DNA of 39,617 nt from an uncultured Bacilli bacterium. GTDB taxonomy: Bacteria; Bacillota_I; Bacilli_A; RF39; UBA660. The notes under the pieces were generated by a model. It saw nothing but the letters and a program-made list of their open reading frames with translations. It searched no databases and was not told where the DNA came from. The position numbers and the translations under genes are program-made. Below are positions 4,418-19,616 of the stretch, one piece after another. The DNA lies in assembly GCA_944327405.1 (NCBI GenBank), contig CALVHK010000001.1, positions 1 to 39,617 of the forward strand, given 5' to 3'. Each line of letters starts with the position of its first letter. Position 1 is the stretch's first letter.

Positions 4418-5399
4418 AAATGTTGCTAATACTTGCTCGTTTATACTCTTCACATAAATTGTCTAAGTCTTTTAAAAAAGCATCAATTTCGCTTTCTTTA
4501 GTAATACGAGCACCACTAGCATATTTATGGCCTCCTCCATTGTAGAGACTTGCTACTTTATTAATGATTGGCCCATGGGAACGAATACTTACTTTATAGA
4601 CATTATTTTTTACGTCTTCCGTAATAAAGGTCCAGACTATTACTTCCCGAATAAAATTAAAATTATTAATAAGATTGGCTGGTGTTGCTAAATCTACATG
4701 ATATTCTTTAATGATCTCGCTTGGAATGATAATATAACCTAGGCCATGTTCCGTAACTGTCATATTCATGGCAATATAGCCTTGAAATCTTGCTTCATCT
4801 AGGCTACGTTCATACAAATAGTTGTATAAAGCTGGAAAATCTATTTTACTTGCTTTGATTAAATCGTGAACAATTTGAAATGTTTTGTTTGTCGTATAAG
4901 GTAGCAAGAAACGATCACTATCAGAGACAATTCCTAGATAAAGATTACCAGCGATTTTGGTATCTAATTTTAATGGTGTTTTAAGTATTAATTCACTAAT
5001 CATTTGACAGGTAGAGCAGCTTGTCTCATCCGTCCAATCTACTGGCCCTTTAATATCTTCGGCAGGATGATGGTCTATTTTCATTATTTCTTTATAGTTT
5101 AGTCCATCAATTCCATCTACTCGAGATAAATTCGGAACATCTAAAACAATTAATAAACATCCCGTTAAAGTTTCATTATCTACTTTATCTAAAATACCAT
5201 AATATTTAAATTTAGATACGCCAAGACCTACCGCATATACTTCTTTTTCAGGAAATGTAAGCCTGATAGAATCCCTTAAGGCTGTAGTTGAGGCAATGGC
5301 ATCAGGATCGGGCCCTACATGTCTTGCTATTACAATTTTTTGATATTCTTTTATCTTTTTATATACTTTTTTGATAATACTATTATTAATGGGAACCAC
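4416..5399 (-). CDS. nrnA: DHH/DHHA1 phosphoesterase, NrnA-like oligoribonuclease / pAp phosphatase
   Basis: 'ARHVGPDPDAIAS', 'DHH' and the C-terminal 'GGGHKYASG' motif are present. The ORF-track start is a GTG abutting its putative RBS, so the exact start is uncertain. Confidence 0.8.
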   Translation of the reverse strand: MVPINNSIIKKVYKKIKEYQKIVIARHVGPDPDAIASTTALRDSIRLTFPEKEVYAVGLGVSKFKYYGILDKVDNETLTGCLLIVLDVPNLSRVDGIDGLNYKEIMKIDHHPAEDIKGPVDWTDETSCSTCQMISELILKTPLKLDTKIAGNLYLGIVSDSDRFLLPYTTNKTFQIVHDLIKASKIDFPALYNYLYERSLDEARFQGYIAMNMTVTEHGLGYIIIPSEIIKEYHVDLATPANLINNFNFIREVIVWTFITEDVKNNVYKVSIRSHGPIINKVASLYNGGGHKYASGARITKESEIDAFLKDLDNLCEEYKRASISNI

Positions 5400-5404
5400 C
5401 CCTT

Positions 5405-6601
5405 CTATTTAATTAAATCATACGTATCAAGTGCAATCATTAATTCTTCATTCGTCGGAATAACATAAACTGCTACATTGGAATCTTCACTAGAAATAAG
5501 CCCTTCTGATTCATCTAGGTAGCCTGCTATCTTGTTGTTCTTTTCTGAATCAATTTTGATACCTAAGCAGCTAAGTTTCTCTATAATTGCTTCTCTAAAT
5601 TCTCTGGCATTTTCACCAAGACCGGCAGTAAAGACTAAAGCATCCACCTTACCCTCTAGTAAAACATAATATTTAGCAATATATTCAACAATACGATTGA
5701 TATACATATTATTAGCTAGAATAGCATCGTGCTCGCCTTTTTTCATCGCTGACTCTATATCTCTGTGATCGCTATATTTCCCACTAAGACCAAGTAAACC
5801 ACTTTTTTTGTTTAAAATAGTATCAACCTCATTTAATGTAGCACCAGTTTGTTCCATATAATAAGGAATTACAGAATAGTCAATATCACCAGAACGTGTT
5901 CCCATGATTAAACCGGCATTGGGAGTAAAGCCCATAGTAGTATCAAAGCTTTTAGAATCTTTAATTGCACAAATAGATGCTCCACTACCAATGTGACAAC
6001 TAATTAAGTTTACACTTTCTTTGCCTAAACGTTCTTTCATCACTCTGGTAATATATTTATGGCTAGTTCCATGAAAACCATATTTACGAATTTTGTAATC
6101 TTTATACCAAGATAATGGTACTGAATACAAATATTGTTCTTCATTCATCGTTTGATGGAAAGCTGTATCAAAAACTCCTACCATTGGAGTATTTGGTAAT
6201 GCTTCCCTAAATGCTTTTACTCCTAAAATATTTGCTGGGTTATGAAGAGGCGCTAAGTTTGATAATTCACTTACTGTGTTAATGACATCATCATCAATTA
6301 AAACACTTGATGCATATTTGTCCCCTCCATGAACTAAACGATGACCGATACCGTCAATTTCATCTAATGATGTGATAATGTTGTTATCAAATAATTCTTT
6401 AATTAATAATTCAATAGCAACTTTGTGGTCTTTCATGACTGCTTCTTTTTTTGTTTTTTCGCCATTTATTTTGATACTATAGATTCCATCATCTAAACCT
6501 ATTTTCTCAAAATTACCACTAATTAATTCTACTTGTTCTGGTAATTCAATCATATTAAACTTCAAAGACGAACTACCAGCATTTACTGTTAATATTTTCA
6601 T
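5405..6601 (-). CDS. ackA: acetate kinase
   Basis: 'MKILTVNAGSSSLKF' is the canonical start. I set the start at the ATG at 6601, which has a GAGGAG RBS. The 5-codon extension in the ORF track is rejected. Confidence 0.95.
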   Translation of the reverse strand: MKILTVNAGSSSLKFNMIELPEQVELISGNFEKIGLDDGIYSIKINGEKTKKEAVMKDHKVAIELLIKELFDNNIITSLDEIDGIGHRLVHGGDKYASSVLIDDDVINTVSELSNLAPLHNPANILGVKAFREALPNTPMVGVFDTAFHQTMNEEQYLYSVPLSWYKDYKIRKYGFHGTSHKYITRVMKERLGKESVNLISCHIGSGASICAIKDSKSFDTTMGFTPNAGLIMGTRSGDIDYSVIPYYMEQTGATLNEVDTILNKKSGLLGLSGKYSDHRDIESAMKKGEHDAILANNMYINRIVEYIAKYYVLLEGKVDALVFTAGLGENAREFREAIIEKLSCLGIKIDSEKNNKIAGYLDESEGLISSEDSNVAVYVIPTNEELMIALDTYDLIK

Positions 6602-9645: not shown

Positions 9646-11550
9646 TTAACCTAAAAGAAGCATAATTGTTTCGCCTTCTGCCACATAATAGCCAGCACTA
9701 GGACTCATATAGATTACGGTATCCCCTGTTCCAGAATATTCAATTTTATAATTCTTTAAGGCTTTGGTTGCTTCTTCTTTCGTCAAGCCTACTACATTTG
9801 GTAGAATACTATATTTTTTGTCTAACCATGTGTATTCTTTGGCCATGCCATCTGTTCGGGGTTCAATATCCAAAATATCAATTGCCGATAATAATACATT
9901 TCGAGCTATTGGGGCTGATACTACTCCTCCATATTGGGTTACTCCCTTTGGATTGTCGATTGCTACATACACCACGATTTCGGGATCATCAGCAGGCATA
10001 AAGCCCATAAATGATAAAATATAATTTCCATCTAAATAAGATCCATTTTCCACTTTTTGAGCTGTTCCTGTTTTTCCTCCAACCCGAAAGTTTTCAATAT
10101 ATGCATTTTTTCCACTGCCGTTTGCTACGACACTTTCTAGAGCATACCTAACTAAGCTGCTCGTTTCTTCACTAATTACTTGCCTTGTTGCAACCGGTTC
10201 TATTTTTTCAATTAAACTATTTGTTTCGCTTTCTAGAAATGCCCCTACTATGTAAGGAGTGTAGAGTTTGCCACCATTAATGGAGGCAGATACAGCACGC
10301 ACTTGTTGGAGTGGTGTTACTGATATTCCTTGACCGAAACTGGTGGTAGCAAGTTCTACTGGCCCCATAGAGTCGATATCAAATAAAATACCTGAAGATT
10401 CCCCATTTAAATCAATACCTGTTTTAGAGCCAAAACCGTATGCTTCAATATAGCTCATAAGAGTTTCTACACCTAAAGTTTGGCCGATTTTAACGAATCC
10501 GGGATTACAGGAATTTTCTACTACTTCCAGCATTGTTTGGGTTCCATGGCCTCCTGATTTCCAGCAATGAATGGTGGATCCGTCCACATTAATGGAACCT
10601 GTATCTGTAAAAGTGTCTTCAAATAAATTGATTGTCTGTTCCTCTAGCGCTGCTGATAAAGTAATGATCTTAAAAGTTGAACCGGGTTCGTAAGTCATCC
10701 AAATTGGTAAATTACGATTAATTACTTCGGTAGCATAATCCCCATAACTGTTGCTGTTAAAATCAGGACGACTTGCCATGGCTAAAATCTCACCAGTGTC
10801 AGGATCCATAGCAATAATCAGTGCTTGTTCGGGATCATATTTGGCAACCGCATTATCCAGTTCATTTTCTATGGCTAATTGCAGTTCAATGTCTATGGTA
10901 AGCTCTAAAGTAATGCCACTGGTTGGAGCTTCGTAAACTTCTGTCAACTCTAGTTTATTCCCTTTTCCATCAGAAAAATACTTGATGGCACCATCCGCAC
11001 CGGTCAAATACTCATCATAATACAGCTCAATTCCCGACAATCCTTGATTATCAATACCAACATAACCCAAAACGTGTGATAAAACAGTTTCATAGGGATA
11101 ATATCTTTTGCTTTCCTTTAGTAAATACACTCCATCGTATCCTAAAGCATCGATTTTTTCTGCCACTTCATAATCAAGGCCTCTACCTTCGGGATGCACT
11201 CTTTCAATTGAGGTTGACTTGGTAACATGTTTCAGCATATCTTGATAATCAGACCCTAAAATGTCTGATAAATCTTTGGCAACAGCTTCGGGATCATCAA
11301 TTTGACCGGGAACAACAACTAAAGATACGGTTGTGATGTTCGTTGCTAAGATGACGCCGTTACGATCAACGATTTCCCCACGGTCTGCCTTTATAGGTAA
11401 CTCTCTACTCCAAAGGCTTTCCGCTAAATTGGATAATTTATCATAAGCAAATACTTGAATATAAAACACTTTTATAATAACTGCTATTAAAATAATAACG
11501 CTAAGCAAAAAGACAAACCTGATTCTTTCATGAATATTTGAAAAAAACAT
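9646..11550 (-). CDS. class B penicillin-binding protein (PBP2B/FtsI-like) with a C-terminal PASTA domain
   Basis: The STFK, SCN and KTGTA active-site triad is present, with a PASTA-like tail 'LPNVVGLTKEEA'. I chose the ATG at 11550 ('MFFSNIHERIRF', AAGGGTGA RBS) over the longer ORF-track start. Confidence 0.88.
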   Translation of the reverse strand: MFFSNIHERIRFVFLLSVIILIAVIIKVFYIQVFAYDKLSNLAESLWSRELPIKADRGEIVDRNGVILATNITTVSLVVVPGQIDDPEAVAKDLSDILGSDYQDMLKHVTKSTSIERVHPEGRGLDYEVAEKIDALGYDGVYLLKESKRYYPYETVLSHVLGYVGIDNQGLSGIELYYDEYLTGADGAIKYFSDGKGNKLELTEVYEAPTSGITLELTIDIELQLAIENELDNAVAKYDPEQALIIAMDPDTGEILAMASRPDFNSNSYGDYATEVINRNLPIWMTYEPGSTFKIITLSAALEEQTINLFEDTFTDTGSINVDGSTIHCWKSGGHGTQTMLEVVENSCNPGFVKIGQTLGVETLMSYIEAYGFGSKTGIDLNGESSGILFDIDSMGPVELATTSFGQGISVTPLQQVRAVSASINGGKLYTPYIVGAFLESETNSLIEKIEPVATRQVISEETSSLVRYALESVVANGSGKNAYIENFRVGGKTGTAQKVENGSYLDGNYILSFMGFMPADDPEIVVYVAIDNPKGVTQYGGVVSAPIARNVLLSAIDILDIEPRTDGMAKEYTWLDKKYSILPNVVGLTKEEATKALKNYKIEYSGTGDTVIYMSPSAGYYVAEGETIMLLLG

Positions 11551-11607
11551 AAGCTTCACCCTTAAAATTATATGCCAAAGCAAAAATGCTAGAAGCAAGT
11601 TCTAACA

Positions 11608-12912
11608 TTATTTATGAATGCAAAATACTGCATATAAAGGAACAGATTTAATATTATTTTCAAAGCCAAAGTTTTTAGAAGATATTCTAATACTATAAAC
11701 TGGATGATATTTGTTTATGTATTCATTAAGGCTTTTTGAATTTGTTCTTCTTCCACTTTTTACTTCTACAGGAATAATATTTCCATTAATTTTGATTAAA
11801 AAATCAATTTCATACCGTTCAAATTGATAATAATACAATTCTCTAAATTTAGTATAAAACTCGCAAGCAACATAGTTTTCGGTAAGAATACCTTTATACA
11901 TTTCATTTTTATCAAGAAGTATCTCACTATAATCTAAATTAGAAAGTGATCTTAAAAGTCCAACATCACTTAAATATAGTTTAAATTTATCTGGAGACGC
12001 AAAAGCTTTCAGCGGAGATTCACACTTTTCAGCTAGATCACATTTCAATATCATATTGCTTGCTAAAAGCCAATCTAGACTTGTTTCATATCTAATCTTT
12101 CTAGCATCTTTATCTACTATACTATACTTAAAAGTATTGTTTGGACGTGCAAGTTCTCTTGGAATAGCATTATAAATTTGGCTATTTTTAATTCCTTCGC
12201 TATTTAGAGTATACTTATTCATGTCTGCTAAATAGGCGGTAATAATTTGCTCTTGTAAAGAGAAATCAACATGAGATATATTACAATCATTACTAATAAA
12301 ATTGTTTACCAATGCTGGCATTCCCCCTAAAACAAGATATTTTTTGTATAAGTCTAGAGCTAATTCATGAATAGACTCAATTAGCTTTTCGTTTGTTTGA
12401 TAATGTTTTTTGATTTCCTCAATTAACATGTTTTTATTTAACGCCATTAAATATTCTTCAAAATCCATAGGATATAAATATTTAATGTTTACTTTACCTA
12501 CTGGAAATGAGGATTTAAATCGGTTTATCTTCACCCCTAATAAAGATCCTGCACATACTATCTTAAATGGTTTATCACTTTCACAAAAATATTTTAAAGA
12601 AGTAATTGCTCTTTCACTAACTTGTATCTCATCAAAAAATATAATCGTGTTTTCGGGATCAATAACGACATTTTTAATAATCTCTATTTTTTCAATAATA
12701 GAATCGGGATTGATTGTTTCTTCAAAAATGCTAGCGATTTCTTCTTCTTTATCTAAATTAAAATATAAATAATGTTCGAAATTGTTTTTACAAAATTCTT
12801 CCAATATATAAGTTTTTCCTGTTTGTCTTGCCCCTATTAACATCAGGGGCATCTTGAAGTTTTCTTTCCATAATTTTAAATCTTCTTCAATTTTTCTATA
12901 CATAGTAATCAC
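11608..12912 (-). CDS. AAA ATPase of the DUF4143 type with a PD-(D/E)xK-like C-terminal module
   Basis: Walker A is 'GARQTGKT' and Walker B is 'IIFFDEIQ'. The C-terminus 'YEIDFLIK...IPVEVKSGRR' looks like a D...E-x-K nuclease-fold motif. Confidence 0.75.
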   Translation of the reverse strand: MITMYRKIEEDLKLWKENFKMPLMLIGARQTGKTYILEEFCKNNFEHYLYFNLDKEEEIASIFEETINPDSIIEKIEIIKNVVIDPENTIIFFDEIQVSERAITSLKYFCESDKPFKIVCAGSLLGVKINRFKSSFPVGKVNIKYLYPMDFEEYLMALNKNMLIEEIKKHYQTNEKLIESIHELALDLYKKYLVLGGMPALVNNFISNDCNISHVDFSLQEQIITAYLADMNKYTLNSEGIKNSQIYNAIPRELARPNNTFKYSIVDKDARKIRYETSLDWLLASNMILKCDLAEKCESPLKAFASPDKFKLYLSDVGLLRSLSNLDYSEILLDKNEMYKGILTENYVACEFYTKFRELYYYQFERYEIDFLIKINGNIIPVEVKSGRRTNSKSLNEYINKYHPVYSIRISSKNFGFENNIKSVPLYAVFCIHK

Positions 12913-12933
12913 CCTTTAGAATATTTTAACACA

Positions 12934-12989
12934 TTTTCGTACAAAACGCACGTATTTTTTTTGATTTTTTCGTGCAATTTGTACGAAAA
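12934..12989 (-). promoter_or_regulatory. long inverted repeat (19-nt arms, 2 mismatches, 18-nt A/T loop) upstream of the ATPase gene
   Basis: TTTTCGTACAAAACGCACG (12934-12952) pairs with CGTGCAATTTGTACGAAAA (12971-12989). A TGtTAAAAT extended -10-like element follows on the minus strand. Confidence 0.4.
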
Positions 12990-13022
12990 AAGTTTTTTTA
13001 AGAAAAGCATTAGAAACAAATT

Positions 13023-13592
13023 CTAACGTTGATAAGTATCTTCAAAAACTAATAATGCTTTTTTTACAAAATAATTATCTGATCTAATTGGTAAATCCAA
13101 GCTTTTCAGTTCCTTAATCATTTCGTTTATATCTTTGTTACTATGGCATTCATACTCGATAAAAATATATTTATCATTTACGAGTTGAATGCATAATTCC
13201 ATATGATTATTGGTATAAATGATACATGAATCGTGGATATTTATTAATTCTTTATAGTGAATGAATGTCATAAAAAGGTATGCATCTTTTTCGTTTTCTA
13301 TTTTACACTGTACTTTCCCCTGCTCTAGAATATCGCCATTAGATGCAAACTTTTTATATTTATATACAAGTTTTCTTTCTACATGATTTTCTTCTGTAAC
13401 TTTTCTAATTAGTACACAATTTTGCAATAATTCTAACTCAGGAGTTGCGAAAATATCTATACTGGTGGGTATCATGTAAATATCGTCAATATTATATTTT
13501 TCCTTTACTAAAAAGCCTTTTTCTAATAGGATTTGATGTAATTTGGGGTAAGTAGTATCTACTAAAACGCTAAGCTCTTTTTCTAGCTTCAT
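13023..13592 (-). CDS. CYTH-like (class IV adenylate cyclase / triphosphate tunnel) domain protein, possibly degenerate
   Basis: 189 aa. The strand motifs occur in CYTH order: 'LEKEL', 'IDDIY', 'VLIRKV', 'LVYKYKK', 'CKIENE', 'IFIEYE'. The canonical ExExK lysine is not conserved. The assignment rests on pattern only. Confidence 0.45.
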   Translation of the reverse strand: MKLEKELSVLVDTTYPKLHQILLEKGFLVKEKYNIDDIYMIPTSIDIFATPELELLQNCVLIRKVTEENHVERKLVYKYKKFASNGDILEQGKVQCKIENEKDAYLFMTFIHYKELINIHDSCIIYTNNHMELCIQLVNDKYIFIEYECHSNKDINEMIKELKSLDLPIRSDNYFVKKALLVFEDTYQR

Positions 13593-14035: not shown

Positions 14036-14070
14036 AAAAAAAGAATATATTTCAATTCTTTTTTAAAATC
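14036..14070 (-). repeat. direct-repeat copy B (A/T hairpin terminator) immediately after abiEii
   Basis: AAAAAAAGAATATATTTCAATTCTTTTTTAAAATC is near-identical to 15609-15642. It forms the hairpin AAAAAGAAT/ATTCTTTTT followed by a T run on the minus strand. Confidence 0.7.
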
Positions 14071-14905
14071 AATTTATTAAGATATTTAGAACTTCTTTTA
14101 TAGCACAAATAACATCTTCGTAATTAATATCTTTTGCATAAGCATTTTTCGTTCGATAGACTATCCATCTTTCTTTCATATTAAGATCTAATTCAAGCTC
14201 TCTTATTACTATGCTAAATTCATTTAAATCAAGATTTGTTTTACGAATGTTAAAAGTATTGTATACTGCTCGCTTTAGTTTGCGTTTATCTAGCTCTTTT
14301 ATTTTTCGATTCATTAAAATATATATATCATAATAGTCTTTTAACCTTGTATTCAAAGTTCCATTACATATAATGGCATGGATTTTTTCTGCTAAAATGC
14401 TTTCTATATTATATGCCATAATAAGTGTCTTGCTATCATCAAAAATGGATTTATAATAGTATTTTATTTCTCTTGGTGTAATTATATCTCCTGCTGTGAT
14501 GTCTATAGAAAGATAGGTTTTATTGTTTTCTAATTTAGCTAAAATATTTACTTTAAAGCCTTGATATTCTTTAGTTAAAGCGATCTTTTTAACTGATATA
14601 ACTTCAAATACAACTCCATCTTTTATATCTATACTTAATATTTCAGCAAATATTTTTTGCACTACTCTTTGCGTTAGAGGAATACCCTTTAATGTCACAT
14701 CCATATCTTTAGTAGTTCTTTCATCATCACCAATGATAGAAGTAAGCAATAATCCTCCTTTTAAAATAATTTGTCCCTGATATTTACTTTTGGATATTCT
14801 ATCTAAAATACGTTCAAAATAAAATAACTGAAAATAATGTTGCGATTTATCACTATTTCCTAATGATTTTTTAGAAACTAAACTTTTTAATTTAGTATAA
14901 TTCAC
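14069..14905 (-). CDS. abiEii: AbiEii/AbiGii family nucleotidyltransferase toxin (type IV TA)
   Basis: 'ILKGGLLL...ERTTKDMDV' is an NTase motif typical of AbiEii. A GTG start directly abuts the abiEi stop codon. Confidence 0.85.
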   Translation of the reverse strand: MNYTKLKSLVSKKSLGNSDKSQHYFQLFYFERILDRISKSKYQGQIILKGGLLLTSIIGDDERTTKDMDVTLKGIPLTQRVVQKIFAEILSIDIKDGVVFEVISVKKIALTKEYQGFKVNILAKLENNKTYLSIDITAGDIITPREIKYYYKSIFDDSKTLIMAYNIESILAEKIHAIICNGTLNTRLKDYYDIYILMNRKIKELDKRKLKRAVYNTFNIRKTNLDLNEFSIVIRELELDLNMKERWIVYRTKNAYAKDINYEDVICAIKEVLNILIN

Positions 14906-15496
14906 TTATAATAAAATCTCCATATATTCTCTCACTTTTTTATCAACTCCTAACTTTTTTGCATATTTCATTAATTTATGTAAGTCTTTAGAATTCATTT
15001 TTGCATATTCTTGTAATGCTTTTGTAAAAATTTCTATATCTATCTTATTTTTATTTTTAATAATATCACAAATAGTTCTTTCAATATCATAAACTTTTAA
15101 CTTCATTCCAAAAGGTGATTCTAGTTCGATTACACCTAAATTAATATATTCCATTTTACTATAATGCAAATCTACATTTTCTTTGTTTTTATAGCAATTA
15201 CCATACCCATATGGTACAGTAACATCATAAATAAGGGGTGTTCTATCACTTAAGTTATGTAGATACAAAGCTGTAGCATGAGAAAAAACTGCTTTTTTAC
15301 ATTTTGATAAAACAACATAAAAATTATCAACATAGCCATTTGGTAATATATAATATCCACTCGATACTCGATATATTTTTTTTTCTTTTACTAGCGTACT
15401 AACATAATAATAATTAATTTGATTCTTTTTTAATTCCTTAGATGTTATGTAGCCTTTTTCTTGAACTAAATTTAATAACTGCTCTTTTTTAGTCAT
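14906..15496 (-). CDS. abiEi: AbiEi family antitoxin / transcriptional autorepressor
   Basis: The N-terminal winged-helix region 'GYITSKELKK...YRVSSGYYIL' is present. I chose the ATG at 15496 (GAGG RBS 8 nt upstream) over 15502. Confidence 0.85.
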   Translation of the reverse strand: MTKKEQLLNLVQEKGYITSKELKKNQINYYYVSTLVKEKKIYRVSSGYYILPNGYVDNFYVVLSKCKKAVFSHATALYLHNLSDRTPLIYDVTVPYGYGNCYKNKENVDLHYSKMEYINLGVIELESPFGMKLKVYDIERTICDIIKNKNKIDIEIFTKALQEYAKMNSKDLHKLMKYAKKLGVDKKVREYMEILL

Positions 15497-15550
15497 TCCC
15501 ATTACCTCAATAAAATACTATCATACATTTCATGATTAGTAAATACTTTT

Positions 15551-15596
15551 CTAATTATTATGCACAAAATTAATTAAAAATGTGCATAATAATTAG
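15551..15596 (-). promoter_or_regulatory. perfect 16-bp inverted repeat, candidate AbiEi operator
   Basis: CTAATTATTATGCACA (15551-15566), a 14-nt spacer and TGTGCATAATAATTAG (15581-15596). It lies 55-100 nt upstream of abiEi. Confidence 0.55.
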
Positions 15597-15608
15597 AGTT
15601 AAGCAAAT

Positions 15609-15642
15609 AAAAAAAGAATATATTTCAATTCCTTTTTTAATC
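15609..15642 (-). repeat. direct-repeat copy A (A/T hairpin terminator) immediately after the surface-protein gene
   Basis: AAAAAAAGAATATATTTCAATTCCTTTTTTAATC shares a 23-nt perfect core with 14036-14070. Confidence 0.7.
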
Positions 15643-15645
15643 GTA

Positions 15646-18600
15646 TTATTCAGCTCTAGTATAGGCTTTATAATCTCCAGATGTTGTTGCTTCCCAAGTT
15701 GCACCATCATTAAATACATAGTCATTACCTACAGTATAATAATTAACTTCGACTTTACCACCTATCGTATTACCATTTGCAATTGTAACAGTTGCAGGTG
15801 CAGGGTATGATATATTATTTGCTTTGTATTCAATTGTAATAGCGTAACCCCATCCTGCTATAGGAACAATAGAGTTGCTAACTGTAATATTTGAACTAGC
15901 AACAGAGATTGATTTTCCACTAGCATTGCTTATTTCAACTCCATCTATTGTAGCATTAGTTACACCATGAATATTAATTCCACTTTTTCCACCTACTACT
16001 TTAATATTACTTACTTTATAATCATTAATACTTCCATAAGTATTTCCTGATACCTTTAGGGCATCTAGTGCTTTCTCATTTGTAGAATTATCCATATTAA
16101 TTGTTAAATTGCTAATAGAGCCATTGGCTTTAACATATACACCAGCTTGACCTGAAATAGGATCACTATTAACATTTAGAATTGTATTTTCTGATGTACC
16201 TTTTAAATTAATTTCATTATTAACTTCTAAATGACCTAATTCATAAGTACCATCATCTAATATTAAAGTTGTTCCTGCTGGTAATGAAGCAATCATTTCA
16301 GACATCTCACTTGTCATAGCAGATGATGCAGTAACAGTAAAGTTTGTTGCTTCTACTTTTGCATTATTAGGATTCCAGAAAGCCCAAAGTGCTAATTCAT
16401 CTCTACTTCCTGCAAAGTCTGCAGTTACATTATTTAATACTAATGTGCTTTCAGAATTAGCTCCTGATAATGATATTCTGCCCTTATTTAATTCTACATT
16501 ATTTAAGGTAGTAGTAGTTCCTGCTACACTTACGTATATAGTTCCGCCAAAATCATTTTCAGCAGTTGTGTTAGGGTTTACAATAATATCTGTTAATACG
16601 GCATCTTTTCCTAGAATTTCTACAACTTTATTAGGATTATCCTTTCCTTGTTGAGCTACTAAAGTAACATTAGATATTTCTACATTGTCACCCCAGATAG
16701 TTACAAAGTTTTGAGTTGGTAAATTTCCATTATCTACTGAAACACCAGCTTTAAGAGTTACATCTCCTTTACCAACAATTCTAAGGTTATCAGCTGTAAT
16801 TGGTAGGAACCAACCAGTTTGACCGCCAGCTCCTTCTTCATTAATTGCTAATGTTCCTTGTGGTAAAAGATATGTTCCTTCATTTATAATCCAATATTGA
16901 TTATCAGCTTGATTATTGATAGCTGCAGTCAATTCTTCAATGTTGTTAATTTCAATTATATTTGAAATTGTTCTGTCAAGTGTAAACTTAATAGTTGAAG
17001 TATTACCAGCAATGTCTGTTGCAGTTACTTCATAATTTCCATCAGCTAAATAGTCTATTCCAAACCAATATGAAGTAGCATTTTGTTCTGTTCTTACATT
17101 CTCGCCATTTAATTTAACAACTAAGTCAAATATATTAGCATCTGATCCATGAACTTGTGGATTTTGTGTGTTAGAAATGCCATCTACAATTGTGTCTACA
17201 TAGATTTCTGGAGCTGTTTTATCTAAAATAACGTAGTAATTACCATCTCCAGTAGATGTAGTTTCTTCGGCAACATTTCCAGCAGCATCGGCAACATTTT
17301 TAATAGTAATTTCTACTTTTTCATTATCTGCTAGCACCATGTCTTCTGTTAATGTAACATAAACTACATATTTATTGTATTGTGGTTCTAATACTGGAAC
17401 AGTAAATGTTTCTCCACCAATTGTAATTGTTGGATCTTCAACTAATAATTCTGTTGTATTAATTACAATAGCAATTTTATCTCCTATTTTAGCATAATTC
17501 TTGTTACCATTAACATTATAATAATTTTCAATTCTTACTTCTCTGATTCCAGGTCTAGTTTTATCAGCGACTACTTTATCTGTTGTATCATCATTTGTGA
17601 TAGTAGTCTCTAATTTATTTCCAGCCTTATCAATAACATTTGTAACTTCAAAAGTTATTTCACCTTCTGTTACATCTTCTGGTACTACATATTCAAATAC
17701 ATATTTTTCCCAGTCTTGATCCCGGTTATCACCGTTTTCATATTGAACGCGATTTGCTGTTTCTCCATTAATAGTTACAGTTGGATCTTGAGCTAATCTT
17801 TCATCAAATGTTAAATATAGCCATACTCTATTTCCAACTTTAGCATATTCAGCATTGCCATCAATATTTTTAAATACTATAGCAGTATTTACAGGAGCAA
17901 TAGTATCAAGTACTACTCCATCATATAATGAATGGTTAATTTCACTTTGTGATACTCCTGTACCTTCATTACCTGCTGCATCTGCGTAACCACTAATTGT
18001 AAATGGTATTTCTCCATCAGATAAATCCATATCTTTTGTAATTGTTACATCAGCCCAGTAATAGTAATCTTCCCATGCAGTATCAAGATGCATTTTCTTA
18101 CTTACTCCACCTATTGTTACTGTAGGTGCTGTAAATAATTCTTCATCAAAACGAACCATTACTCTTAATGTATCACCAATATTAGCTACACCAAGTTCTT
18201 CTTCAGCATCATTATCATCATTTTCAATGTAATGAGTAATATTTGTAATACCGATTTCTTGGGCAACTGGTGCTTCATTATCATAAACTACTTCACCATA
18301 AGTACCATTATCAGTAATACCTTCATTTGTTACTGTAGTCTCATTTTTAGCTTCATCAATAATGTTAGTGATACTAATTGGAATTGCTGAATCATTAGTT
18401 AAACCAAATGCTTCACCATCAATAGTGATTCTAGCATCACATTTGTAGTATTTTCTTTCTGTTTCCCATTCAGTCCATGCACAAGACATGTTTACAGCTT
18501 CAGCCTCACCAACAGTAATTGCTGGAGTACTATCAAAATCTTCAGTAAATACTAATTCAATATACAAGTCTTGACCATCACCAATTACTTTGTAATGTTT

Positions 18601-19509
18601 ATCAGCAAGATCAGTACCATGATATGTAGCATTTAGAGTATATAGCCATTCTACTTCGATAGCTTCTGTATCATAAGTAAATGATAATTCACTTCTATTG
18701 TTTAATGAATCTGTAGCGATAATAGTATTTGTGCCTTGTACTAAATGATTCGTAATTTGATCTAAATCAATCGCCGTACCATTTAATAAAACTGTAACTT
18801 CATTAACATCATCTACGGTAATAGTACCAACATTATTAGTAATAGTGCCATCCTCAATTCCGCTAATTACTGGAGCAGTCTTATCAATACCAAATTCAAC
18901 TACTGTTTTATTTTCAGATTCATCAACCACTGTTAAAACATAGTTCCCATCACTAGATAGGGTCATACCAGCTTCAAAAGTTAGTGTTTCTCCATCTTTT
19001 TCAATAGTTACTGTTAAGTTGTCTTCAGCTAATGTTAATACTACAACAGTATTAATGTAACCAATTGAATTCTCAGGTCCTTCTCCTTGATATGTTTTAT
19101 CAAGAATTGTTACTACAGGTGCAGTTGTATCTGCTGGCTCTGATGGCTCATCTTCTGGTGTATCTTCTCCACTATCTTCACTTGGATTTGATGGAGTATC
19201 ATCACCACCAATTACAACATCTGTTGAATCTTCCTCATCATCGTTTTGAGCTACATTATTATTTGAACCGTTTCCGTTAGAATTATTTCTATCGTCATCG
19301 GTTGGTGTGTTTCCTTCTTCACCTTCTTCCCCACTACCATTCGTATTCTCGCCGTCTTGACTTCCATTGTTTTCTTCGACATCACTTGGATTATTATTGT
19401 CATTACCATTCTCGTCTAGACGTTCACTTGGATTAGCGAATACGAAAGTACCTAATCCGATTAAAAGAATAATAACGACAGCTAATATGATGCCCTTTCT
19501 TTTATCCAT
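15646..19509 (-). CDS. large cell-surface protein: N-terminal membrane anchor, acidic/Asn-rich linker, repeated Ig-like modules, C-terminal parallel beta-helix-like region
   Basis: The start is set at 'MDKRKGIILAVVIILLIG' (GGGAGG RBS 6 nt upstream), because a promoter lies inside the longer ORF-track version. 'DKTAPV' and 'LDTIAPV' boundaries recur. The C-terminal part is rich in short N/G/V/T repeats typical of beta-helix proteins. Confidence 0.8.
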   Translation of the reverse strand: MDKRKGIILAVVIILLIGLGTFVFANPSERLDENGNDNNNPSDVEENNGSQDGENTNGSGEEGEEGNTPTDDDRNNSNGNGSNNNVAQNDDEEDSTDVVIGGDDTPSNPSEDSGEDTPEDEPSEPADTTAPVVTILDKTYQGEGPENSIGYINTVVVLTLAEDNLTVTIEKDGETLTFEAGMTLSSDGNYVLTVVDESENKTVVEFGIDKTAPVISGIEDGTITNNVGTITVDDVNEVTVLLNGTAIDLDQITNHLVQGTNTIIATDSLNNRSELSFTYDTEAIEVEWLYTLNATYHGTDLADKHYKVIGDGQDLYIELVFTEDFDSTPAITVGEAEAVNMSCAWTEWETERKYYKCDARITIDGEAFGLTNDSAIPISITNIIDEAKNETTVTNEGITDNGTYGEVVYDNEAPVAQEIGITNITHYIENDDNDAEEELGVANIGDTLRVMVRFDEELFTAPTVTIGGVSKKMHLDTAWEDYYYWADVTITKDMDLSDGEIPFTISGYADAAGNEGTGVSQSEINHSLYDGVVLDTIAPVNTAIVFKNIDGNAEYAKVGNRVWLYLTFDERLAQDPTVTINGETANRVQYENGDNRDQDWEKYVFEYVVPEDVTEGEITFEVTNVIDKAGNKLETTITNDDTTDKVVADKTRPGIREVRIENYYNVNGNKNYAKIGDKIAIVINTTELLVEDPTITIGGETFTVPVLEPQYNKYVVYVTLTEDMVLADNEKVEITIKNVADAAGNVAEETTSTGDGNYYVILDKTAPEIYVDTIVDGISNTQNPQVHGSDANIFDLVVKLNGENVRTEQNATSYWFGIDYLADGNYEVTATDIAGNTSTIKFTLDRTISNIIEINNIEELTAAINNQADNQYWIINEGTYLLPQGTLAINEEGAGGQTGWFLPITADNLRIVGKGDVTLKAGVSVDNGNLPTQNFVTIWGDNVEISNVTLVAQQGKDNPNKVVEILGKDAVLTDIIVNPNTTAENDFGGTIYVSVAGTTTTLNNVELNKGRISLSGANSESTLVLNNVTADFAGSRDELALWAFWNPNNAKVEATNFTVTASSAMTSEMSEMIASLPAGTTLILDDGTYELGHLEVNNEINLKGTSENTILNVNSDPISGQAGVYVKANGSISNLTINMDNSTNEKALDALKVSGNTYGSINDYKVSNIKVVGGKSGINIHGVTNATIDGVEISNASGKSISVASSNITVSNSIVPIAGWGYAITIEYKANNISYPAPATVTIANGNTIGGKVEVNYYTVGNDYVFNDGATWEATTSGDYKAYTRAE

Positions 19510-19534
19510 GAAAAACCTCCCGTCCTTCGACACT

Positions 19535-19562
19535 ATTATACCATTTTTACAACTAAAATCAA
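19535..19562 (-). promoter_or_regulatory. promoter of the surface-protein gene
   Basis: Minus strand has TTGATT (19562-19557), a 16-nt spacer and TGgTATAAT (19543-19535). Confidence 0.5.
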
Positions 19563-19616
19563 CTTTTCTATACATAAAATATGTATAATTCGTGAAATTT
19601 TGACAAATTTTGCAAG

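Follow-up and report, generated by a model that had tools for sequence, protein, structure and literature searches.

Gene content of the AbiE locus

We analysed a stretch of 39,617 nucleotides (hereafter, the window) from an uncultured Bacilli bacterium (contig CALVHK010000001.1 of the assembly GCA_944327405.1; C1 and G000 in our labels), which carries an AbiE toxin-antitoxin operon bracketed by two direct copies of a short hairpin. The assembly comprises 1.08 Mb in 138 contigs, with a GC content of 31% and a completeness of 77%. Between 9 and 21 kb of the window all the genes lie on the minus strand and, read in this direction, the operon stands between the gene of a surface protein (its left neighbour) and a bPH-domain gene (its right neighbour). 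The bracketed segment is composed as follows, in window coordinates:

14036..14068, minus strand: putative terminator hairpin, copy A; stem 14037-14046 / 14055-14064, loop 14047-14054 (repeat search and folding)
14069..14905, minus strand: abiEii, DUF1814 nucleotidyltransferase toxin, 278 aa (Pfam and PADLOC)
14906..15502, minus strand: abiEi, antitoxin and, by family, transcriptional autorepressor, 198 aa (PADLOC)
15503..15549, minus strand: putative abiE promoter and leader, with the extended -10-like box TGTATGATA at ~15519-15527 and a ribosome-binding site (read from the sequence)
15550..15597, no strand assigned: candidate abiE operator, a palindrome with 24-nt arms, 88% complementary (inverted repeat search)
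15609..15641, minus strand: putative terminator hairpin, copy B; stem 15610-15619 / 15628-15638, loop 15620-15627 (repeat search and folding)

On the basis of protein profiles, the assignment of the gene pair to AbiE is firm. AbiEii matched the Pfam profile PF08843 at 2.2e-34, over 214 of 238 profile positions, and the PADLOC AbiEii profile at 1.9e-84 over its full length, and its translation shows the GG...RTTKDMD motif. AbiEi matched the PADLOC AbiEi profile at 2.2e-69 over its full length (residues 3-197), and the Pfam AbiEi_4 profile with 23.3 bits, slightly below the cut-off of 25. The abiEi gene lies directly upstream of abiEii, with contiguous open reading frames (ORFs), and the candidate operator palindrome stands 48-95 nt upstream of abiEi. 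The map of ORFs and repeats agrees with an earlier reading of the sequence (hereafter, the initial annotation), which had the repeats bracketing exactly the abiE promoter/operator, abiEi and abiEii: indeed, only the 24-nt-arm palindrome, the promoter region and the two genes lie between the hairpin copies.

The AbiE systems described in Lactococcus lactis and Streptococcus agalactiae are bicistronic, and their antitoxin represses its own operon via inverted repeats (Dy et al. 2014, PMC3985639; Beck et al. 2020, PMC7319586). The pair studied here shares with AbiE systems the order of the genes (abiEi directly followed by abiEii), the DUF1814 toxin, the two-domain antitoxin (an N-terminal winged helix-turn-helix and a C-terminal domain) and an inverted repeat in the promoter, here a candidate operator. 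As a gene pair it is a standard, ordinary AbiE system with nothing unusual in itself; what sets it apart is the host, an uncultured gut Bacilli lineage with a small genome of 31% GC. Both AbiE activity (toxicity, neutralisation and phage defence) and transcription termination at the hairpins are presumed from the sequence and from what is known of the families.

The bracketing repeat is a duplicated hairpin

The window contains exactly two occurrences of the 23-mer AAAAAAAGAATATATTTCAATTC, which lie 1573 nt apart on the plus strand (14036-14058 and 15609-15631). Allowing up to three mismatches, the window still contains two matches, while none was found in 100 dinucleotide-preserving shuffles; a search of the whole assembly with up to two mismatches returned the same two copies only. 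If one C/T difference or indel is accepted, the match stretches to 31-32 nt; a weaker similarity reaches 49 nt (84% identity). Thus, the duplication and the perfect 23-nt core reported by the initial annotation hold, and its length of 34 bp was slightly generous.

The repeat folds into a hairpin with an A/T-rich stem of 10-11 bp and a loop of 8 nt, followed on the transcribed strand by a T run, and probably acts as an AT-rich terminator native to the locus. Copy B lies downstream of the surface-protein gene, 5 nt past its stop codon (15646-15648), and upstream of the abiE operator; its folding energy is -10.9 kcal/mol (z -4.0 versus shuffles) and its left flank is orthologous to that of the lone terminator in the species with an empty site (see below). 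Copy A abuts the stop codon of abiEii (14069-14071), upstream of the bPH promoter. With respect to the ancestral GGAAT..ATTCC stem, both arms of copy A are altered together to GAAT..ATTC (GG..CC to G..C) and, since the change is paired, its stem stays perfect; the same paired change is present in the sister species (G009). No Rfam family matched at the hairpins or at the operator palindrome.

Two trivial explanations of the pair were discarded. A chance match or a common motif is ruled out by the shuffles, by the two copies in the genome and by the single-copy state of the hairpin in the genomes of the genus. An assembly artefact is ruled out by the recurrence of the same two-copy layout in eight independent assemblies, obtained with different assemblers.

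Empty sites in the genus

In the species representatives G019, G024, G010, G007 and G020, a single hairpin (AAAAAAGGAATTGAAATATATTCCTTTTTT or a near variant) joins the stop codon of the surface-protein gene to bPH. With at least five sister species showing such an empty site, the proposal of an accessory insertion at the terminator of the surface-protein gene found support. Among the 44 species representatives of the genus, the hairpin is recognisable (up to three mismatches) in about 11, with one copy each, at the bPH locus where this was checked; only this genome and G009 have two copies. A double match in G054 is a coding repeat in paralogous proteins.

The repeat is therefore not a genome-wide motif: it has two copies in the assembly under study, is single-copy across the genus and doubled only in the two sister species. 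Given the single-copy empty sites and the absence of a genome-wide motif, the duplication is informative; neither of the situations that the initial annotation had named as undermining its reading (the same two-copy arrangement in all relatives, or a common terminator motif) was found.

Age, fixation and decay of the two-copy arrangement

Contigs of the same species were collected through proteins identical to bPH or to AbiEii. Both look-ups yielded exclusively contigs that carry AbiE, in total 14 distinct ones from independent assemblies; eight reach both hairpins and are identical to the letter at both. One contig of this species (L023, coverage as low as 2.7x) has five clustered base differences in abiEi (850-1440), which split the gene into ORFs of 30 and 120 aa; this may be a sequencing error or a broken antitoxin allele.

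In a collection of 5.8 billion proteins, the closest AbiEii homologues are 76-79% identical. They include L084 and L085, both members of the G009 species; over 265 nt that comprise copy A and bPH, L084 and G009 are 100% identical. The strains L084, L085, L173, L178 and L179 of this sister species have an intact module and both hairpins, with diverged copies (copy B, GGAATTGAAATATATTCC; copy A, GAATTGCAATATATTC), and the local DNA identity between the two species is ~84-86%. Since the sister species has the same two copies, already diverged, the duplication predates the split of the two species. Between lineages, the DNA identity of AbiE is 82-84%, about equal to that of the flanking core genes (80-86%).

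The two-copy arrangement is thus old and fixed, and the module is now an immobile resident. In other words, the insertion scar at the terminator described by the initial annotation is real, although the event was not recent and the scar does not belong to an element that is still moving.

For the G009 species, 12 contigs were available, which bring the sample of the two-copy species to 26 contigs. Four alleles were found:

intact module: L173, L178, L179, L084, L085
abiEii pseudogene: L176
abiEii replaced by ~50 nt, abiEi kept: L174, L175, L180, L181, L182
both genes deleted: G009 (= L177)

The deletion in G009 is internal, measures 1.48 kb and has the junction GCATAATAAATA|AGTTAATTT, situated at a microhomology of sequence AATA; what remains is the operator palindrome, the final 9 nt of abiEii and the two hairpins. 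All the losses observed keep both hairpins wherever the contig reaches them. The precise excision through the repeats that the initial annotation had envisaged was found in none of the 26 assembled contigs: no single-hairpin product was present, and all the losses have other junctions. In 6 of the 12 contigs of the sister species the toxin gene is lost or broken while abiEi is kept, an indirect hint at the presumed toxin-antitoxin activity. Across the strains L173-L182, the region upstream of bPH shows this toxin-first decay, with the antitoxin usually kept, and the surface-protein gene is unrelated between strains.

A second left junction of the module

The contig L083 carries an orthologous module in another setting: its AbiEii is 79% identical and its flanks are 85% identical to those of G019. 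The right junction is the same as in this genome (TGA stop codon, TTT, hairpin and the native flank GTACAATTATATT), and upstream of the operator there is a different terminator, AGAGTAAGAGGAATCTTGCTCTTTTTT. The species representatives L089, L093, L094 and L095 have a terminator of the AGAGTAAGAGGAATCTTGCTCTTTTTT type, a degenerate operator palindrome and the GGAAT hairpin, without abiE genes. In total, AbiE or a relic of it is present in five of about 11 ingroup lineages. The candidate operator palindrome is conserved in L083, L084 and L173, and is left as a relic in G009, L089 and L093-L095, all of which lack the abiE genes.

Given the different left terminator of the L083 type, AbiE may have first arrived at another time than the duplication. 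Hence, of the claim that the insertion duplicated the terminator, the duplication stands and its tie to the first arrival is not required by L083 or by the relics.

The locus is a hotspot of variable genes

The order of genes in the region is lepB, the variable surface-protein gene, [AbiE], bPH, [CYTH-like gene], [PDC-S01], pbp, mraY and ftsW, where square brackets mark optional members. The conserved flanks are lepB on one side and bPH, pbp, mraY and ftsW on the other; variable presence among the relatives was seen for each of four members, namely the surface-protein gene, AbiE, the CYTH-like gene and PDC-S01. The comparisons agree with a reading of bPH and the CYTH-like gene as residents next to which the two defence cassettes landed. 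The neighbouring features are:

15646..19575, minus strand: surface-protein gene, hypervariable left neighbour, 1309 aa
13594..13989, minus strand: bPH-domain gene, conserved right neighbour and anchor of the locus (Pfam PF08000)
13023-13592, minus strand: CYTH-like gene, 189 aa
13011..13030, minus strand: hairpin TTAGAA..TTCTAA after the CYTH-like gene, upstream hairpin of the PDC-S01 bracket
11608-12912, minus strand: AAA_14/DUF4143 gene, the PADLOC candidate defence gene PDC-S01 (6.5e-148)
11590..11609, minus strand: hairpin TTAGAA..TTCTAA after PDC-S01, downstream hairpin of the PDC-S01 bracket, 85% identical over 20 nt to 13011-13030
ending at 11598, minus strand: pbp

Surface proteins of different species share only 25-55% of their amino acids, and those of different strains of the sister species are not similar at all. 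Homologues of bPH were found in 80 species representatives, with amino acid identities of 74-98%; in the Genome Taxonomy Database (GTDB) these representatives are metagenome-assembled genomes of uncultured gut Bacilli, including 'Mycoplasma sp. CAG:776', Candidatus Caccenecus and 'uncultured Tenericutes'.

Similar brackets at other loci

AbiE is not the only bracketed gene of the hotspot. The hairpin flanking PDC-S01 is native to the locus, and relatives without the cassette have one copy of it. In the same stretches (11547-11609 and 12900-13030 of the window), the ribosome-binding-site and start regions of PDC-S01 and pbp also resemble each other (72% over 25 nt). In G009 (L092), just downstream of bPH, the spacer towards pbp holds ~35 nt that match or resemble the 3' end of PDC-S01, which looks like the relic of a lost cassette.

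Elsewhere in the genus, a second AbiE module, with protein identities of 43% and 37% to that of the window, is present in L040 (G019:C27, 2505-3937, minus strand) and L041 (G010:C79). A direct repeat of 28 nt, TTTGTCGAACACTTTTGCTTGC(A/T)TTTTTA, stands on both sides of it; the upstream copy comes directly after the stop codon of the preceding gene, and single-copy empty sites were found in G044:C12, G011:C22 and G005:C1. The contig L183 (G041:C37) carries two AbiE modules in tandem, of which the first is decayed (abiEi and 38 codons of abiEii) and bracketed by a direct repeat of ~57 nt, at 606-662 and 1606-1664. Finally, in this same genome (L185, G000:C76) a TPR/zinc-ribbon gene of 492 aa (852-2330) is bracketed by a repeat of ~95 nt, at 609-710 and 2415-2516, which corresponds to the 3' end of a LiaF-like gene and has at least five single-copy empty sites (G024, G045, G049, G009 and G051). 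For the C76 region, G050 has the whole 3.3 kb at 98% identity, which suggests a recent exchange or a binning problem. The varied lengths of the repeats at these loci argue against an enzyme with a fixed stagger.

We also evaluated if flanking repeats are a general feature of AbiE, and rejected this idea: among 20 modules of the genus, only the one studied here and one other (two orthologues) have repeats clearly above the shuffle maximum. A large group of AbiE homologues from another taxon (~61% identity) showed no such flanking repeats.

Origin of the doubled hairpins

Taken together, these data depict an AbiE type IV toxin-antitoxin / abortive-infection operon in a hypervariable defence hotspot, whose doubled hairpins probably derive from a single Campbell-type insertion-duplication through short homology. 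The doubled state would go back to one event in the ancestor that this species shares with its sister species. The process would start from an AbiE segment already ending in a GGAAT hairpin, as in the arrangement of L083, a possible donor; the ~30-nt hairpin of this segment would recombine with the hairpin of an unoccupied locus, giving the order hairpin, operator, abiE, hairpin. Copy B could then end the surface-protein transcript and shield the autoregulated abiE promoter from read-through, and copy A could end the abiE transcript ahead of the bPH promoter. Later on, the repeats would play no part in the spread or loss of the cassette, which would depend on homologous recombination within the conserved flanks and on ordinary deletions. 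Insertion-duplication is the simplest route that accounts for both left junctions.

No mobility gene was found nearby. The initial annotation had reported no integrase or transposase nearby; coherently, we found no tyrosine recombinase on the contig (serine recombinases were not searched for), and the repeats enclose no genes other than abiEi and abiEii. Three tyrosine recombinases (PF00589) are encoded in the genome, on contigs C7, C119 and C9. The bracketed segment has no transposase and, in the sequence at the inner ends of the repeats, no terminal inverted repeats, and the lengths of brackets elsewhere vary from 20 to 95 nt, so that a transposon or insertion sequence is not indicated; nor is an integrative element, given the lack of a tyrosine recombinase on C1 and of a single-copy product in the 26 contigs.

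Some observations weigh against insertion-duplication between terminator hairpins. A homology of ~30 nt is short for a RecA-dependent crossover, and neither a circular form nor a donor form was seen. The hairpin of copy A is weak: its folding energy is -6.8 kcal/mol, with z -0.4, on par with shuffles. A consensus terminator scan called neither copy, because it demands three G-C pairs. As most of the 20 AbiE modules of the genus have no significant flanking repeat, the bracket is not a general property of AbiE. Moreover, a tree of bPH plus pbp gave a star without resolution for the 11 ingroup lineages, so it does not tell which left state is the older one, the two GGAAT hairpins or the other terminator with one GGAAT hairpin.

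The duplication could also have been produced on the target in one step, by a staggered break spanning the hairpin (e.g., an extruded cruciform cut at its base and filled in) or by template switching during replication, in which the fork would leave its template, copy the cassette and come back at a point further upstream. We regard this route as a clearly less probable candidate. The limits of the repeat nearly coincide with those of the extended palindrome (A run on one side, T run on the other), the empty sites have one clean copy, and other cassettes of the genus have target duplications of 28, ~57 and ~95 nt with verified empty sites, whose varied lengths fit template switching. However, the L083-type lineages share the right junction without having the left copy, and an extra replacement event would be needed to explain them; in addition, the other duplicated targets are not palindromic, so cruciform cleavage cannot be general. 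The free exchange of the surface-protein gene, even within the sister species, with the terminator-operator segment kept, opens another path, in which the left copy came later: a donor surface-protein gene with its GGAAT terminator, from an unoccupied strain, would have replaced the resident gene and the other terminator, with an illegitimate join at the T run before the abiE operator. Copy B has a left flank orthologous to that of the empty sites, and the homology of the two arrangements breaks at the T run. Nevertheless, we deem this path unlikely: it requires an illegitimate right-hand crossover even though a long homology in bPH lies just beyond (where a crossover would delete AbiE), and it leaves the similar brackets at other loci unexplained.

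Lastly, the repeats may be read as the attL and attR sites left by a site-specific integrative element whose integrase is gone, namely a remnant of the type of cis-mobilizable elements (CIMEs) or a cassette resembling those of integrons or dif modules, perhaps mobilisable in trans. Direct repeats flanking, with tight ends, a cassette without its own recombinase would suit this picture, as would the 11-8-11 imperfect palindrome of the repeat, roughly of Xer/dif size, and the three tyrosine recombinases encoded elsewhere in the genome. It is nonetheless very unlikely, considering that no junk or remnant of a larger element lies between the repeats, that the hairpin is already the native terminator in the empty genomes, that the other bracketed cassettes use unrelated repeats of different lengths, and that 0 of 26 contigs bear an excision product while all the observed losses occurred at other junctions.

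Comparison with known mobile cassettes

The minimal mobile elements of Neisseria are cassettes located between conserved flanking genes and swapped by homologous recombination (PMC1797815, PMC3787668). The locus studied here resembles them, since relatives carry different cassettes or none between the same conserved flanks: alternative or absent cassettes stand between lepB and bPH/pbp, without mobility genes, and their presence does not follow the species tree. The difference resides in the bracketing target duplication, which is outside the definition of a minimal mobile element.

In Campbell-type insertion-duplication, direct repeats derived from the target flank a segment without a recombinase of its own, and CIMEs likewise have att sites and no integrase. 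The AbiE bracket has in common with both the target-made direct repeats around an inserted segment lacking its own recombinase; on the other hand, the homology is only ~30 nt, no att-integrase pairing is evident and no excision was seen. A small defence or toxin-antitoxin cassette bounded by imperfect palindromes of ~30 nt also recalls integron cassettes and the pdif modules of Acinetobacter. Unlike in those systems, the palindrome here is a pre-existing native terminator, no integron integrase context is evident and the repeats of the other bracketed cassettes are non-palindromic.

A single hotspot documents the empty site, the occupied site, two left junctions, operator-only relics and the toxin-first decay of a defence cassette. 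The recurrence of brackets without mobility genes (AbiE two or three times, PDC-S01 and the TPR gene) hints at how bacteria with small genomes, poor in mobile elements, shuffle their defence genes. We tentatively suggest that small-genome gut Bacilli might gain single genes and defence cassettes by recombination free of mobility genes, through insertion-duplication or template switching, leaving target duplications of 20-95 nt; the bracketed units could then pass between strains with the short repeats as homology arms, and this process would have left several footprints, among them the AbiE bracket. The bracket pattern is a modestly interesting lead and, if the route is general, it deserves a systematic survey.

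Other repeat pairs of the genome

Two further repeat pairs were noted in this genome. On C64 (L184), an exact 35-nt direct repeat (4426-4460 and 6066-6100) surrounds a zinc-ribbon gene of 438 aa; it was not retained as a bracket, as it could not be verified and has no empty sites. The last 76 nt of C64 recur with 100% identity in two contigs from a different species (G007), which may reflect a repeat element or an assembly chimera. On C9, a 23-nt direct repeat, TTTTAGGTAGCATTTAGGTAGCA (9976-9998 and ~18762), spans 8.8 kb beside a tyrosine recombinase of 395 aa (integrase at 10160-10690); the pair belongs to an island of the conventional, integrase-borne kind and offers a useful contrast with the bracket around AbiE.

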